From a virus, in the UHGV virus genome UHGV-0331123: a stretch of DNA of 12,882 nucleotides; one strand, written 5' to 3'. The notes under the pieces were generated by a model. That model had not been told where the DNA came from. It worked only from the letters and a program-made list of their open reading frames with translations, and ran no database searches. Below, in pieces: positions 1-5,299 of this stretch. Every line of letters begins with the position of its first letter. Position 1 is the first letter of the stretch. Position numbers and translations under genes: made by a program.

Positions 1-378
1 CGCGAAGTGGTGAAACACTCCAGAAGCGGGGAATCTGTTATCAAGGAAGAGTGGGTGAAGGAACTGTGTCAGCATTGTCATGGTAAGGGAGAAGTCAGCA
101 CAGCGTGCAGAGGGTGTAAGGGTAAAGGTATTGTCCTGGATGAAAAAAGAACCCGGCTTCATGGCACGCCTGTTTATAAGGTTTGTGGGCGTTGCAATGG
201 AAACCGGTTTAGCCGTTTACCAACCACACTGGCGCGGCTTCATGTCCAGAAGCTGGTACCAGACCTGACGGATTATCAGTGGTACAAAGGATATGCAGAT
301 GTCATTGATAAACTGGTTACAAAGTGCTGGCAGGAAGAAGCATATGCAGAGATACAATTGAGAAAGGTGACAAGATAA
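1..378 (+). CDS. Late-gene antiterminator Q-like protein, 5'-partial (frame is open to the window edge); carries three CxxCxGxG zinc-finger repeats
   Basis: ORF open from position 1, stop at 376-378. Motifs CQHCHGKGE, CRGCKGKGI and CGRCNGNRF resemble DnaJ-type Cys-rich repeats. Sits immediately upstream of a promoter-like region, a terminator and the lysis cassette, which is the Q position in lambdoid phages. Assignment is positional plus motif, not a recognised sequence match. Confidence 0.45.
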   Translation, partial: REVVKHSRSGESVIKEEWVKELCQHCHGKGEVSTACRGCKGKGIVLDEKRTRLHGTPVYKVCGRCNGNRFSRLPTTLARLHVQKLVPDLTDYQWYKGYADVIDKLVTKCWQEEAYAEIQLRKVTR

Positions 379-985: not shown

Positions 986-2038
986 ATGAAAAATACTGTA
1001 AAAATAAACAGTGTTGATTTAATCAACGCTGATTGCCTGCATTTTATTCAGTCCCTGCCTGATGATTCCATTGACCTGATTGTTACCGATCCGCCGTACT
1101 TCAAGGTGAAACCCAACGGCTGGGACAATCAGTGGAAAGGGGACGAAGATTACCTTAAGTGGCTGGACCACTGTCTGGCCCAGTTCTGGCGGGTGTTAAA
1201 GCCTGCCGGAAGCCTTTACCTGTTCTGTGGGCATCGCCTGGCATCTGATATTGAGATCATGATGCGTGAACGTTTCAACGTGCTTAACCATATCATCTGG
1301 GCGAAGCCGTCCGGACGTTGGAATGGGTGTAATAAAGAAAGTCTGCGCGCATATTTTCCTGCCACAGAGCGCGTTCTGTTTGCTGAACATTACCAGGGGC
1401 CATATCGCGGCAAAAGTGACGGCTATGCGGCAAAAGAAAGGGAACTCAAACAGCACATAATGGCACCGCTGATATCGTATTTCAGGGATGCTCGTGCCGA
1501 ACTGGGTATAACGGCAAAACAAATTGCCGAAGCCACAGGTAAGAAAAATATGGTTTCCCACTGGTTTGGTGCCAGTCAGTGGCAGTTGCCGAATGAGGCT
1601 GACTATCGGAAGTTACAGGCACTGTTTTCCCGTATAGCGGCAGAGAAGTTTCAGGAACAACAACTGGAACAACCACACCACCAGCTGGTGGCATCTTATG
1701 ATTCACTGAATCGCAAATATTCTGAATTGCTGGATGAGTTTAAATCTCTCCGGCGCTATTTCTCCGTATCAGTCTCCGTGCCTTATACCGATGTCTGGAT
1801 GCATAAACCCGTTCAGTTCTACCCGGGTAAACATCCGTGTGAGAAACCTGCGGATATGCTCCGGCAAATAATCAATGCCAGTAGTCGACCTGGTGATCTG
1901 GTTGCTGATTTTTTTATGGGATCCGGTTCCACAATAAAAGCAGCAATGGCGCTGGGGCGTCGGGCCTTAGGTGTTGAGCTTGAGTCAGAGCGGTTTAACC
2001 AGACAGTGAAAGAGATAAACGAGCTGGTGGGGAAATAA
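986..2038 (+). CDS. DNA N6-adenine methyltransferase, beta class (N6_N4_Mtase family), phage-borne orphan
   Basis: 350 aa. Motif IV DPPY near the N-terminus (LIVTDPPYF) and motif I FxGxG near the C-terminus (DFFMGSGST); order IV then I defines the beta class. DPPY rather than SPPY favours N6-adenine. No cognate restriction gene is adjacent. Confidence 0.85.
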   Translation: MKNTVKINSVDLINADCLHFIQSLPDDSIDLIVTDPPYFKVKPNGWDNQWKGDEDYLKWLDHCLAQFWRVLKPAGSLYLFCGHRLASDIEIMMRERFNVLNHIIWAKPSGRWNGCNKESLRAYFPATERVLFAEHYQGPYRGKSDGYAAKERELKQHIMAPLISYFRDARAELGITAKQIAEATGKKNMVSHWFGASQWQLPNEADYRKLQALFSRIAAEKFQEQQLEQPHHQLVASYDSLNRKYSELLDEFKSLRRYFSVSVSVPYTDVWMHKPVQFYPGKHPCEKPADMLRQIINASSRPGDLVADFFMGSGSTIKAAMALGRRALGVELESERFNQTVKEINELVGK

Positions 2039-2044
2039 TCTGGT

Positions 2045-2066
2045 GGCCACGTAGGTGGCCTTTTTA
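2045..2066 (+). terminator. Rho-independent terminator between methyltransferase and holin
   Basis: Stem GGCCAC (2045-2050) / GTGGCC (2055-2060), loop GTAG, then TTTTTATTT. Confidence 0.5.
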
Positions 2067-2104
2067 TTTCCATTACACAGCACCCGCATCTGCGAGGTGG
2101 GGTT

Positions 2105-2320
2105 ATGAAATCCATGGATAAGTTAACAACGGGTGTCGCCTATGGCACCTCAGCAGGTAGTGCCGGGTACTGGTTTTTACAGTTGCTCGATAAAGTCACG
2201 CCCTCACAGTGGGCGGCAATAGGTGTGCTGGGTAGTCTGGTATTTGGCTTGCTGACGTATCTGACAAACCTTTATTTCAAGATTAAAGAAGACAAGCGTA
2301 AGGCTGCACGGGGAGAGTAA
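2105..2320 (+). CDS. Pinholin, phage 21 S-type, with dual-start motif (antiholin from Met1, holin from Met4)
   Basis: 71 aa beginning MKSMDK (ATG at 2105 and 2114). Closely matches my memory of phage 21 S21 ([45 protein letters not shown]). Two predicted TM helices; followed by a SAR endolysin, the expected partner. Confidence 0.9.
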
Positions 2321-2324
2321 TTCA

Positions 2325-2669
2325 ATGACTCAAAAATATGAACTGATTGTGAAAGGGATCCGCAATTTTGAGAATAAAGTTACGGTAACTTTAGCGTTAC
2401 GGGACAAAGAACGCTTTGACGGTGAAATTTTTGACCTGGACATCTCGCTGGACCGTGTTGAAGGTGCCGCGCTGGAGTTTTATGAGGCAGCAGCCAGAAG
2501 GAGCATCAGACAGGTCTTCCTGGATGTTGCTGCCGGGTTATGTGAAGGGGATGAGCTGTCGCCGGAAAAGCGCCCCATAATTTTAGAGGCGCAGAATGTG
2601 TGGATAACCTACAAAGGAAAGCTACCGGGAAGAATTACTGGTTCTCTGAAGACTCCGCCGAAATGGTAA
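2325..2669 (+). CDS. Hypothetical protein (114 aa) inserted between holin and endolysin
   Basis: ATG at 2325 with GGAG 9 nt upstream, 4 bp after the holin stop; no motif I recognise. The 3' end overlaps a convergent minus-strand ORF by about 35 bp. Confidence 0.55.
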   Translation: MTQKYELIVKGIRNFENKVTVTLALRDKERFDGEIFDLDISLDRVEGAALEFYEAAARRSIRQVFLDVAAGLCEGDELSPEKRPIILEAQNVWITYKGKLPGRITGSLKTPPKW

Positions 2670-2907
2670 TTTCACCAGCATATTTTTCTTCCAGTAATAC
2701 CGCCAGCCACTTGAAAGAATTTTGTTGTTGCTGGGACCATTTGGGGTTGAGTGATTCAAGCTGGAGCGATGCCAGTGTTGGTTGCATTTGTTCCTTGGGA
2801 ATTGAGAATGCCAGATATGAAAATGCGACAGTAAGGGCATTTACATCATCCCGAAGCTTGGAAATGCAGTCGAGCAACTCCTGTAGAGAAATGGTGCTAT
2901 TGTCCAT
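2635..2907 (-). CDS. Hypothetical protein (90 aa), convergent to the lysis genes
   Basis: ATG at 2907 on the minus strand with GAGAGG 7 nt upstream; the track start at 2913 is a TTG. Balanced, helical-looking composition and lower GC than its surroundings. Confidence 0.5.
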   Translation of the reverse strand: MDNSTISLQELLDCISKLRDDVNALTVAFSYLAFSIPKEQMQPTLASLQLESLNPKWSQQQQNSFKWLAVLLEEKYAGEITISAESSENQ

Positions 2908-3012
2908 AAACAATCCTCTCTATTGTATTTAACTATTCCTTGCCTGATTCAACAGGCCGGGACAGATAAACATATCCAGGGTTCAGAAACCGATAAATCC
3001 TGATAAATATCC

Positions 3013-3555
3013 ATGAACGTAAAAATCAGATACGGCCTGTCGGCTGCCGTTCTGGCACTGATTGCCGTCGGTGCGCCTGCGCCTGATATTCTCGACCAGT
3101 TTCTGAATGAAAAAGAAGGTAACCACACAACGGCATACCGCGATGGTTCCGGCATCTGGACCATCTGTCGGGGTGCCACGGTGGTGGATGGAAAACCCGT
3201 TTTTCCCGGTATGAAACTGTCGAAGGAAAAATGCGACCAGGTTAACGCCATTGAACGGGATAAGGCGCTGGCATGGGTGGAGCGCAATATTAAAGTGCCA
3301 CTGACCGAACCACAGAAAGCGGGTATAGCGTCATTTTGTCCCTATAACATTGGCCCCGGTAAGTGTTTCCCGTCGACGTTTTATAAGCGGCTGAATGCCG
3401 ATGATCGTAAGGGGGCATGCGAGGCGATTCGCTGGTGGATAAAAGATGGTGGGCGTGATTGCCGCCTGACAAAAGGGCAGAAGAATGGCTGTTATGGGCA
3501 GGTCGAGCGGCGCGATCAGGAAAGCGCACTGGCGTGCTGGGGGCTGGAGCAATGA
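3013..3555 (+). CDS. SAR (signal-anchor-release) endolysin, T4-lysozyme-like glycoside hydrolase, phage 21 R-type
   Basis: Gly/Ala-rich weakly hydrophobic N-terminal segment (GLSAAVLALIAVGAPAP) typical of a SAR domain. Catalytic triad at exactly E35, D44, T50 (EGNHTTAYRDGSGIWT), the spacing of R21 and T4 lysozyme. Stop overlaps the Rz start (ATGA). Confidence 0.9.
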   Translation: MNVKIRYGLSAAVLALIAVGAPAPDILDQFLNEKEGNHTTAYRDGSGIWTICRGATVVDGKPVFPGMKLSKEKCDQVNAIERDKALAWVERNIKVPLTEPQKAGIASFCPYNIGPGKCFPSTFYKRLNADDRKGACEAIRWWIKDGGRDCRLTKGQKNGCYGQVERRDQESALACWGLEQ

Positions 3556-4088
3556 AAATTAATCCGGATCTTATAGGCGTTGTCGTTATTGCTGGCCTTT
3601 CGGTCGCTCTCGTCAAGAGTTGCTCTCACGCCAGTAATCTTCAGAGCGATAACGACGTTCTGCGAAGTGACAACTCTATGCTGGGGCAGGTAATCGCCAC
3701 CCAGGCATTCAACTTCAATCGATTCAATCAGGTTGCAGAACATGCCAACAGTCTTAACTCCCTGATCGACACCAGCACCGAAAAAACCGTAATCGAATAC
3801 CGGGAGATTCTCCGCCGTGAAAAAACCTGTGATCTGCCTGTTCCTGCTGATATCGCTGGTGGGTTGCTCGAATACACGTACCGTTTACGTGCCAGCGCCA
3901 TGCACACCGATACCGGCAGACCTAATGAAGCCTATGATCGTACCGCTACCACCAGCTCAATGACCTACTGCCAAGCTGTCTTGTGGATTAAGCCGCTACT
4001 GGCGTTGATAGAAAAAGGAAATAATAATTTTTCGAGTATTCGTGAAATTGATGAGTTGCGTTACAGACCATCTGAGCATGGCCAGTAA
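3552..4088 (+). CDS. Rz-like inner-membrane spanin (i-spanin)
   Basis: ATG at 3552 overlaps the endolysin stop; N-terminal TM helix (LIGVVVIAGLSVALV) then a periplasmic helical domain; contains an embedded +1-frame lipoprotein ORF. The C-terminal roughly 30 codons lie in AT-rich DNA. Confidence 0.8.
   Translation: MKINPDLIGVVVIAGLSVALVKSCSHASNLQSDNDVLRSDNSMLGQVIATQAFNFNRFNQVAEHANSLNSLIDTSTEKTVIEYREILRREKTCDLPVPADIAGGLLEYTYRLRASAMHTDTGRPNEAYDRTATTSSMTYCQAVLWIKPLLALIEKGNNNFSSIREIDELRYRPSEHGQ
3817..3963 (+). CDS. Rz1-like outer-membrane lipoprotein spanin (o-spanin), embedded in the +1 frame of Rz
   Basis: Translation by hand: (GTG)KKPVICLFLLISLVGCSNTRTVYVPAPCTPIPADLMKPMIVPLPPAQ. Signal peptide with lipobox LVGC and a Pro-rich mature part, as in lambda Rz1. 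Start is GTG with GGGAGA upstream. Too short for the ORF track. Confidence 0.65.
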   Translation: MKKPVICLFLLISLVGCSNTRTVYVPAPCTPIPADLMKPMIVPLPPAQ

Positions 4089-4165
4089 GGTTGCAGGAAA
4101 TTTAAAATCTGGCGATGAAATTTAATATTAGAAATTCATTGCCTAGTGAGATTAATAATGGGCAT

Positions 4166-4203
4166 CCCTTTGTGACGATAAGCTTTAACACATTCACAAA
4201 GGG
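4166..4203. terminator. 10-bp perfect hairpin between the Rz stop and the 3' end of the minus-strand moron; possible bidirectional terminator
   Basis: CCCTTTGTGA (4166-4175) and TCACAAAGGG (4194-4203) flank an 18-nt loop and are followed by ATATTTAATAT on the + strand. No clean U-tract on either side, so terminator function is uncertain. Confidence 0.35.
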
Positions 4204-4256
4204 ATATTTAATATAGGGTGGTTAATTCCCACTTGCTGTGGTGTTTAGGGGGTAAT

Positions 4257-4949
4257 TCAAATCTTATCTAACTCATTATAGGCTTCGATAATAAAAATTC
4301 TGATTTTAATAAGGCATGATTCAATGAAAGGAATTACTTCATGGTCATTCCCATGGAATCTTATTTTTTTCTCTTCGGTAATGACTATGTTTAAAGGTAC
4401 ACCATTACCACTTCTTTGTAATTTCCCATTTTCGAAAGTAAAGTCTTCTAATTTTTTGCCATTGATGTGGTTGTTTTTAAAGAGAATTTTTGCTGAGCTT
4501 CCTGCTGTGATTAAACCAAAACCATCTACGCTCACACTTAGGTCTTTAACAGAACTCTCTTCTCTTAAGGGGATTGGTTGTCTGTGCTTTACTTCATTAG
4601 TGAGATTACACATCATTTCCAACCAAGATTCGCCAGTGTGATAATCCTGTATAGAAGTAAAAATTTTATATAATGGAGAAGATGATGGTGGGTTTATTTT
4701 TAGCGTCTTTGAGAAAAATTTATCAATAAACTCTCTTTTTCCGTAAGGGAAATATATTTTGGGGCGCTCATCATTACTGCGTGGAGAAATATATTTATCA
4801 TAGGTATCATTAGCGAGATACTCTAAGGAACTTCGTAAGTTTTCCAAAATAGCTTTGACTTTTACAGGCTTGATATGCTGTGTCTGTCTCATTATGTCAA
4901 GACTTTCTTCAACTTCTTGCAATAAGTCCAACGAGCCTTCTCTAGACAT
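4257..4949 (-). CDS. Hypothetical 230-aa protein on an AT-rich moron at the lambda bor position; candidate lysogenic-conversion or anti-phage gene
   Basis: Minus-strand ORF with strong Shine-Dalgarno (AAGGAG about 10 nt upstream of ATG at 4949). GC is visibly much lower than the flanking phage genes and it runs opposite to the late operon, with AT-rich promoter-like DNA upstream (4950-5100). No catalytic motif I can name. Confidence 0.7.
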   Translation of the reverse strand: MSREGSLDLLQEVEESLDIMRQTQHIKPVKVKAILENLRSSLEYLANDTYDKYISPRSNDERPKIYFPYGKREFIDKFFSKTLKINPPSSSPLYKIFTSIQDYHTGESWLEMMCNLTNEVKHRQPIPLREESSVKDLSVSVDGFGLITAGSSAKILFKNNHINGKKLEDFTFENGKLQRSGNGVPLNIVITEEKKIRFHGNDHEVIPFIESCLIKIRIFIIEAYNELDKI

Positions 4950-5299
4950 ACAGGTAATTCTCCTTTATGAATTTTCAACATGTTATAACTAATAATATAT
5001 TTATCATATAACTGTATGAATAAATTGTGAGATTAGTAATGCAAGTTTCTATCCATAGTGTTCTCTAAGTACCCGCTTCCATCATGTTGTTACGGACGGT
5101 ATGGCTAAAACAAAGCACCTGAAGTTAAACGTTCTGAACTTTATGCTCGTTGAGCATATGAATTATCTGTAACCCGATGCGCTGGTTGTGGTTCACATTG
5201 ATGGTCGTAATCAGCAGCGGTGGTGCCTGATGGCATGCAACTTCTTACTTATAAAACTTCGTATGGAATTGTTGCCATAACGAGCCCAGCTTAGCAGTT

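Follow-up and report, generated by a model that had tools for sequence, protein, structure and literature searches.

The interval between the pinholin gene (S) and the endolysin gene (R) of the UHGV virus genome UHGV-0331123 probably combines an accessory gene of the late operon, ydfR, with a moron-type insertion carrying a small minus-strand gene, hereafter X, the two genes overlapping only through the site at which the insertion sits. We analyzed the 12,882-nucleotide stretch as a whole, referred to as the window. Judging from genome comparisons, the arrangement is ordinary in Escherichia coli prophages, where it occurs in about a fifth of the complete genomes and is already annotated in RefSeq, and it is not a new lysis-control device.

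Organization of the Lysis Region

The window represents a lambdoid prophage late region, with Rz/Rz1 and then the terminase, portal and head genes lying past the lysozyme gene. The following features bear on the S-R interval:

7..378: Q antiterminator gene, lambdoid prophage late region
986..2038: DNA methyltransferase gene, upstream of the holin gene
2045-2060: terminator-like hairpin between the methyltransferase and holin genes
2105..2320, plus strand: S, S21-type class II holin (pinholin) gene, 71 aa, dual start Met1/Met4; PF04971
2310..2317, plus strand: Shine-Dalgarno-like GGGGAGAG for ydfR within the end of the holin gene, read from the sequence
2325..2669, plus strand: ydfR-family gene (DUF1327), 114 aa; PF07041, phrog_406
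2566..2592, minus strand: candidate intrinsic terminator of X, a 7-bp GC-rich hairpin (2592-2570) followed by UUUU (2569-2566)
2635..2907, minus strand: gene X (phrog_2411), 90 aa, predicted small acidic soluble three-helix bundle
2663..2934, no strand: approximate extent of the indel carrying X, relative to prophages with a 116-aa ydfR followed directly by R
2915..2920, minus strand: Shine-Dalgarno sequence GAGAGG of X, 7 nt before its ATG, read from the sequence
2922..2952, minus strand: weak promoter-like site of X (TTGAAT, 19-nt spacer, TACAAT)
2969..3012, plus strand: conserved A/T-rich endolysin leader without a Shine-Dalgarno sequence, right border of the variable slot
3013..3555, plus strand: R, rrrQ-type lysozyme (endolysin) gene, 180 aa; PF00959, phrog_7

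The holin gene ends with TAA at 2318-2320 and ydfR starts with ATG at 2325, leaving a gap of 4 nt; the ydfR stop codon (TAA) is at 2667-2669. Gene X extends from an ATG at 2907-2905 to a TAA at 2637-2635, and an alternative TTG start at 2913 would give a product of 92 aa. The two genes converge and share 35 nt at their 3' ends (2635-2669), 343 nt separate the end of ydfR from the start of R, and the complete S-R interval measures 692 nt. An earlier note on this DNA had described two convergent ORFs with such an overlap splitting the holin from the endolysin, and all of its coordinates hold.

The holin belongs to PF04971 ('P21 holin S', E = 2e-35) and also matches the holin families phrog_9876 and phrog_20; its DNA matches loci annotated as essD, and an S21-type holin gene is present in 4311 of the 5426 complete E. 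coli genomes. The endolysin carries a Gly/Ala-rich N-terminal hydrophobic segment and matches PF00959 (E = 1e-23) and phrog_7 (endolysin), and its counterparts in related loci are annotated as rrrQ or lysozyme.

The Plus-Strand Gene Belongs to the YdfR Family

The plus-strand ORF matches DUF1327 (PF07041) over positions 1-92 of the 93 in the model (145.1 bits for a cut-off of 25, E = 7.6e-43) and phrog_406 from end to end (1-114 of 114). Based on these family assignments it is a YdfR-family gene, of a kind widespread in prophages: at least 2259 of the 5426 complete E. coli genomes contain the holin-ydfR junction, and the order S-ydfR-R recurs in phages such as mEp460. The 4-nt gap between the S stop codon and the ydfR ATG is annotated alike in all related loci, including those of K-12 Qin, mEp460, BL21 and UTI89. 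The succession of S directly by R, which the earlier note had given as the norm for phage 21-type cassettes, is thus one arrangement only; S and R do adjoin each other elsewhere, as it had suggested checking, in DLP12 (essD-rrrD) and not in Qin.

The closest well-known counterpart is the essQ-ydfR-rrrQ-rzpQ cluster of Qin in E. coli K-12, in which ydfR likewise follows an S21-type, class II holin gene at 4 nt and precedes an rrrQ-type lysozyme gene, and in which residues 1-74 of YdfR are 82% identical to those encoded in the window. It differs from the window in that its YdfR has 103 aa and another tail, its ydfR stop codon overlaps the rrrQ ATG and X is absent, whereas the window has 343 nt and X in between. 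The cassettes of phage 21 and DLP12 share a homologous holin (PF04971) and the same general S-R-Rz/Rz1 layout, but there the holin and lysozyme genes abut and the lysozyme is of the 165-aa R21 type, as opposed to the rrrQ type of 177-180 aa, which ydfR and X precede in the window.

In the AF2 model, YdfR forms a beta3-alpha domain (residues 1-73; strands 5-14, 18-27 and 34-43, helix 50-73), followed by a tail (residues 74-114) with pLDDT below 50. Known YdfR alleles of 103, 104, 114, 116, 176, 183 and 329 aa have a common core and divergent tails, and the tail would thus be the variable and probably disordered part of the protein. Hydropathy analysis detected no membrane segment (highest 19-residue Kyte-Doolittle mean 0.69), and the protein is predicted to be soluble.

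The literature on ydfR held one informative paper, a 2026 study of RNase E interactors (PMC13232886). There, residues 1-72 of K-12 YdfR bound the catalytic N-terminal half of RNase E in two-hybrid and co-purification experiments, the purified protein carried RNA, and its overproduction altered few transcripts and was not reported to be toxic, unlike that of YegJ in the same study (PMC13232886). We propose that ydfR is read from the late transcript just past the holin gene, from a Shine-Dalgarno sequence inside S and across the 4-nt gap, and that it would be a regular member of such late operons. Since its domain resembles the K-12 RNase E and RNA binder, we infer that the YdfR of the window may bind RNA or RNase E in the late phase of infection, with an effect on RNA decay. 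We do not think that it takes part in lysis of the membrane or the cell wall.

Phage-encoded proteins that target RNase E exist elsewhere, such as the T7 gp0.7 kinase and phiKZ Dip. The YdfR of the window would be another phage-encoded binder of RNase E, if it behaves like its K-12 relative.

The Minus-Strand ORF Is a Real Gene

Gene X matches phrog_2411 over its whole length (1-90 of 90, E = 2.2e-59), and PGAP annotation lists its product as hypothetical in BL21-AI, UTI89 and other genomes; BL21, UTI89 and ATCC 8739 are among the strains with this allele. To this family also belong relatives with 30-63% identity in Citrobacter, Serratia, Sodalis, Chania, Gibbsiella, Chimaeribacter and Acerihabitans, which were retrieved in two steps, by profile from 1.8 billion representative proteins and then by a second homology search; the motifs AFSYLAF and LESxN are conserved among them, and the Citrobacter and Serratia homologs match phrog_2411 as well.

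We compared the window with seven related loci (eight in all, DNA identity to the window 82-99%), across which a block of 926 nt aligns without gaps. The X reading frame is open and free of indels in all eight, and in the part of X outside the overlap the variable sites fall 16/11/33 on the first, second and third codon positions, with a pN/pS of 0.31. This comparison indicates that X is a real gene under purifying selection, against the possibility, raised in the earlier note, of a non-coding minus-strand ORF. Some genomes carry frameshifted X alleles.

A chance antisense ORF was the obvious other explanation, as antisense strands often contain long ORFs, the scans gave no strong promoter, and a plus-strand ORF at 2600..2932 has its third positions in register with those of X, so that periodicity alone cannot separate the two frames. 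Yet it is X that stays intact in the eight diverged loci, whereas the plus-strand ORF is interrupted by stop codons in five of them; homologs with 30-40% identity and conserved motifs exist in genera that have no ydfR at that place, and AF2 is confident of a three-helix fold. We regard this explanation as already refuted by the comparative data and give it next to no weight.

The AF2 model of the X product (pLDDT 78) comprises helices 8-34, 38-52 and 59-77, and residues 80-90 are disordered. The 10.2-kDa protein is acidic (pI 4.3) and predicted to be soluble, its top 19-residue Kyte-Doolittle mean being 0.88, and hydropathy gave no transmembrane segment. It would accordingly be a soluble acidic three-helix protein, which most likely binds to some host protein and in this way serves as a small regulator or adaptor.

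Of the homology and structure searches that the earlier note had envisaged, those for a family succeeded for both proteins (DUF1327 and phrog_2411), and those for a match that would assign a function to X did not. There was no meaningful match of X in Pfam, NCBIfam or PADLOC; Foldseek against PDB and BFVD returned nothing at E ≤0.001 for its fold, and the X profile against PDB sequences gave only hits with E >0.5. No homology was detected by hhalign or BLASTP between X and BssS or the 86-aa and 79-aa proteins encoded at the same site in other prophages (see below), a literature search on X or 'ybl58' found nothing, and Rfam had no match across the whole window. As the earlier note had stated, neither protein is a canonical lysis protein: Pfam and NCBIfam gave no lysis family for X or YdfR, and the PHROG matches all fall under 'unknown function'.

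A toxin-antitoxin or defence module was considered and rejected, Pfam, NCBIfam and PADLOC being negative and hydropathy flat. For type II toxin-antitoxin systems, these three databases gave no family match, and the two genes are independently distributed and convergent rather than co-directional; for type I, Kyte-Doolittle profiles of X and YdfR showed no membrane-active hydrophobic peptide. PADLOC-DB v2 contained no family matching YdfR, X or the 230-aa ORF at E ≤1.

X Lies in a Polymorphic Slot Upstream of the Endolysin Gene

In prophages with a 116-aa YdfR, R starts 63 nt downstream of ydfR. Alignment of the window with one of these (L011), which represents the empty slot type, leaves a gap of 272 nt between conserved flanks (approximately 2663-2934), corresponding to X and its upstream region, and record spans of 477 as against 751 nt recur across many genomes. 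The 9 final codons of X and the ~11 final codons of ydfR fall in sequence that alleles lacking X also possess; the 35-nt overlap encodes X residues 80-90 and YdfR residues 104-114, in the tails that AF2 predicts to be disordered in both proteins. The convergent overlap of the two genes can therefore be understood as a by-product of where the insertion sits.

In addition to the forms with X and with the 116-aa YdfR, the slot takes the following forms:

176- or 183-aa YdfR and an unrelated 86-aa minus-strand gene, phrog_2572 (L004 and L012)
104-aa YdfR and an unrelated 79-aa minus-strand gene, phrog_21218 (LF82)
329-aa YdfR filling the slot (O55:H7)
the mEp460 type
the K-12 type, in which the ydfR stop codon overlaps the rrrQ ATG (ATGA)

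At least six alleles exist, three of them with unrelated small minus-strand genes, and in a spread sample of genomes the slot classes appear as distinct spans. In phiSTEC1575-Stx2k, the block S-ydfR-X is followed by different lysis genes, the homology ending at the R start.

The best reading of these comparisons is that X came as a moron-type insertion of ~272 bp into the slot that separates the ydfR core from the start codon of R, a place prone to recombination, and the earlier note's idea of extra cargo inside the cassette is borne out, with X on an indel of about this size and ydfR as an accessory gene. The moron concept of the lambdoid phages reportedly goes back to Hendrix/Juhala, and bor of phage lambda, a neighbour of the lysis genes on the other strand, is one example. 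Like such morons, X is an extra gene that relatives lack, placed in the late region against the direction of late transcription and provided with its own translation signals, and unrelated genes occupy its site in sister prophages; its presence or absence between conserved flanks is polymorphic among related phages. Classic morons often stand out in G+C. The base composition of X is not distinct from that of the surrounding DNA (41-47% G+C over X versus 46-54% in the flanks, and 32-36% over 4000-5200), and X further differs from morons in that its promoter and terminator are weak candidates and its 3' end overlaps the neighbouring gene; its predicted product is cytoplasmic and soluble rather than a lipoprotein.

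ydfR and X Are Inherited Independently

The two-ORF arrangement with X was detected in 1129 of the 5426 complete E. coli genomes (1038 with a longer query). ydfR occurs in about twice as many genomes as X, mostly without it. A RefSeq genome contains this very two-ORF sequence at 100% identity, and phage Chlobot, isolated as a plaque from puddle water, has the same arrangement at 98.8% identity, which shows that it is compatible with lytic growth.

Conversely, X homologs occur apart from ydfR. A Citrobacter prophage carries one upstream of the holin gene and facing away from it, without ydfR, and another prophage has one upstream of the terminase genes, again facing away. In Serratia, Sodalis and Chimaeribacter, the homolog is chromosomal, in the order rne-pyrC-dinI-X-bssS-solA, and forms a separate unit past the dinI terminator. 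This stand-alone gene has the same length as X, is 30-40% identical to it and contains the AFSYLAF and LESxN motifs, but it differs in its conserved non-prophage position and in its C-terminal tails. Based on these distributions, ydfR and X are not a co-inherited unit.

The Citrobacter X homolog overlaps a convergent 63-aa ORF that ends in ...KITGSLRAPIKL, reminiscent of the YdfR tail ...RITGSLKTPPKW. This likeness (ITGS) is explained by homology, between the two species, of the DNA at the 3' end of the X unit.

Expression Signals of X

A standard scan found no promoter in 1950-3200, and no canonical sigma-70 promoter is present upstream of X. A separate scan produced a sole candidate on the minus strand, TTGAAT-19-TACAAT (2952-2922), which is weak, has a 19-nt spacer and implies a start site inside the Shine-Dalgarno sequence. 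All eight loci retain its -10 element (TACAAT or GACAAT) and the Shine-Dalgarno sequence (AGAGG or GAGG); the X homologs elsewhere have no common upstream promoter motif. SOS control was considered for X and rejected: a LexA box lies upstream of dinI, and not consistently upstream of X.

The candidate terminator lies 42 nt past the X stop codon. As minus-strand RNA it folds with -13.0 kcal/mol (z = -2.5), against -8.8 kcal/mol (z = -0.7) for the same stretch as plus-strand RNA; a consensus terminator scanner missed it because of its 9-nt loop and only four U. A stronger version of this hairpin is found in mEp460, which lacks X. The promoter candidate with its 19-nt spacer, the four-U terminator, the mEp460 hairpin without X and the ordinary G+C are points against reading X as a moron, and so are the frameshifted X alleles of some genomes.

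In three prophage contexts X or its homolog is oriented against the late genes, from which we infer that it may be expressed independently, mainly in the lysogen. The resident prophage would then be the most likely source of a separate X transcript.

The Endolysin Leader

The 25 nt that precede the R start (ccgataaatcctgataaatatcc) are A/T-rich and contain no GGAG-like motif. This agrees with the earlier note as to the missing Shine-Dalgarno sequence; its suggestion that translation of R might depend on the insert does not stand, as the leader is conserved in most slot variants, including the empty one. The leader (~44 nt) is conserved over its full stretch with the empty slot type and with the type encoding the 183-aa YdfR, over the last ~16 nt with mEp460, and over the last ~12 nt only with K-12 Qin. 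Being common to most of the slot variants compared, the leader without a Shine-Dalgarno sequence is not due to the X insert, and judging from these alignments such a start is a general property of rrrQ-type genes. No upstream plus-strand ORF ends at the R start in the window, so that R is not translationally coupled here.

Alternative Explanations

Could the convergent pair nonetheless be one module, in which X would act as an antisense RNA over the 3' end of ydfR, or YdfR and X would interact, to tune lysis or to form a toxin-antitoxin-like switch? The 35-nt overlap is free of indels in all eight loci, the Citrobacter X homolog likewise overlaps a convergent small ORF with a YdfR-like tail, and other slot alleles too have minus-strand genes overlapping the end of ydfR. 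However, ydfR is found mostly without X, and other prophages as well as some chromosomes have X and no ydfR; the ITGS likeness is accounted for by DNA homology at the X 3' end, and the overlap encodes predicted disordered tails. Neither a toxin or antitoxin match (Pfam, NCBIfam, PADLOC) nor a hydrophobic peptide was found, and overproduced K-12 YdfR, unlike YegJ, was not reported to be toxic (PMC13232886). We consider such a module very unlikely, and the two suggestions of the earlier note that come closest to it have lost ground: a toxin-antitoxin-like pair has no family matches and each gene occurs alone, and the search for a lysis-timing regulator found no lysis-regulator signature. A related explanation, that YdfR by itself is a cytoplasmic regulator of pinholin timing, in the manner of P1 LydB acting on LydA, and not a binder of RNase E or RNA, draws on the position of ydfR directly past S in tight translational linkage, on the overlap of its stop codon with the R start (ATGA) in K-12 Qin, which ties its translation to both lysis genes, and on an envelope-integrity screen, cited in PMC13232886, that picked up ydfR. 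We found it improbable, slightly less so than the module: YdfR has no likeness to known antiholin or lysis-regulator families, an S21-type holin gene abuts the endolysin gene without ydfR in DLP12, and the only experiments available implicate RNase E and RNA (PMC13232886).

In phage 21 the S and R genes lie side by side and bring about lysis, a further point against a timing role of YdfR. Of the other explanations, the one we would give most room, while still holding it unlikely, is that X is defence-related cargo, either for superinfection exclusion or another anti-phage activity or as a small acidic inhibitor of host defence, and that the ydfR-R junction is an exchange hotspot. In its favour, the slot is polymorphic, with three of its at least six alleles carrying unrelated small minus-strand genes, and the orientation of X against the late operon suits expression in the lysogen. 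X is moreover small and acidic (pI 4.3), as is typical of many phage inhibitor proteins. But PADLOC gave no match and known inhibitors no structural match, and the X family is syntenic and single-copy near dinI/bssS in several genera, which points to a housekeeping or stress role rather than to phage-host conflict. For defence or anti-defence cargo, which the earlier note had listed among its options, no positive support was found in the case of X, though X may have a role in host physiology or phage exclusion. A more elaborate and somewhat less probable conjecture holds that the boundary of the ydfR core with the R start is a dedicated exchange site for antisense small genes expressed in the lysogen (X/phrog_2411, phrog_2572 and phrog_21218); X would then be either an effector on host physiology or phage susceptibility, or its antisense RNA over the ydfR tail would, together with an RNase E-binding YdfR, control processing of the S-ydfR-R mRNA and hence lysis timing. 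The reading that we prefer is still that of a late-operon accessory gene next to a moron-type insertion.

Significance

What looked like an odd insertion in a phage 21-type cassette is among the commonest E. coli prophage arrangements, and our results are mainly a clarification that bears on no long-standing open question. They single out a polymorphic site just upstream of the endolysin gene that recurrently houses unrelated small genes facing against late transcription. The family of X is also represented by a conserved chromosomal gene near dinI/bssS in Serratia and relatives. Finally, a great many prophages have a late-operon gene for YdfR, a protein recently reported to bind RNase E, which hints that late phage expression and RNA decay in the host may be connected in a way that can be tested.

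The slot between ydfR and the endolysin gene

In other E. coli prophages, the variable stretch between the ydfR core and the start of the endolysin gene R, which in the window holds the 90-aa minus-strand gene X (phrog_2411), carries small minus-strand genes that are unrelated:

L004 2732..2992, minus strand, 86-aa gene, phrog_2572
L012 2265..2525, minus strand, 86-aa gene, phrog_2572
L031 (strain LF82) 1037..1276, minus strand, 79-aa gene, phrog_21218

All three are convergent with ydfR, whose 3' end is overlapped in L004 and L031, and the presence of unrelated genes in the same place suggests that this slot is a recurrent exchange site. In E. coli O55:H7 (L013) the entire slot is occupied by a 329-aa YdfR-family ORF (1764..2753) with a long C-terminal extension (phrog_1085), a gene flagged as incomplete by PGAP. 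The 176- and 183-aa YdfR alleles (L004, L012) look like truncated relatives of this form.

Homologs and decay of X

In several genera of Enterobacterales (L014 5001..5282, also L019-L022 and L029; Serratia, Chimaeribacter, Sodalis), homologs of X occur as a conserved chromosomal gene, present in single copy and flanked by dinI and bssS. This chromosomal gene lies approximately 2-3 kb downstream of rne and falls in no Pfam family. A minority of X alleles carry a frameshift after about residue 58, giving 94-aa products (P0044, P0046, P0049, P0051 and P0058 in alignment A5 of the X alleles), and X is thus decaying in some lineages. Strain S931B carries ISEc52, an element of the IS3 family, in the stretch separating X from the endolysin gene (L009 2950..4119), so disruption of the X-R intergenic region is tolerated in resident prophages.

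Flanking genes and a low-G+C island

Downstream of the endolysin gene, the usual spanin arrangement is found, an Rz-like gene with an embedded Rz1-like ORF:

3552..4088, Rz-like gene, its start overlapping the endolysin stop (ATGA)
3817..3963, Rz1-like lipoprotein ORF (MKKPVICLFLLISLVGCSN...), in a different frame

In the interval that separates Rz/Rz1 from the gene for the terminase small subunit, G+C drops to 32-36% (4000-5200), versus ∼50% elsewhere. This island contains a minus-strand 230-aa ORF (4257..4949, phrog_13652) preceded by promoter-like sites at 5031-4992; it had no match in Pfam, NCBIfam or PADLOC, nor by tblastn against the phage collection. In its composition, this ORF resembles a classic moron more closely than X does.

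The methyltransferase and holin genes are separated by a terminator-like hairpin (2045-2060, GGCCACGTAGGTGGCC with a T-run after it), within the expected Q-antiterminated late transcript.

Endolysin start

In the Qin prophage of K-12 (L024), the start codon of rrrQ is overlapped by the stop codon of ydfR (ATGA, 3555..3558), which suggests that the two genes are translationally coupled. This coupling is broken in the window (R start at 3013) and in most other alleles, and the leader lacking a Shine-Dalgarno sequence is retained. Coupling of ydfR and rrrQ would account for the missing Shine-Dalgarno sequence of rrrQ-type endolysin genes.
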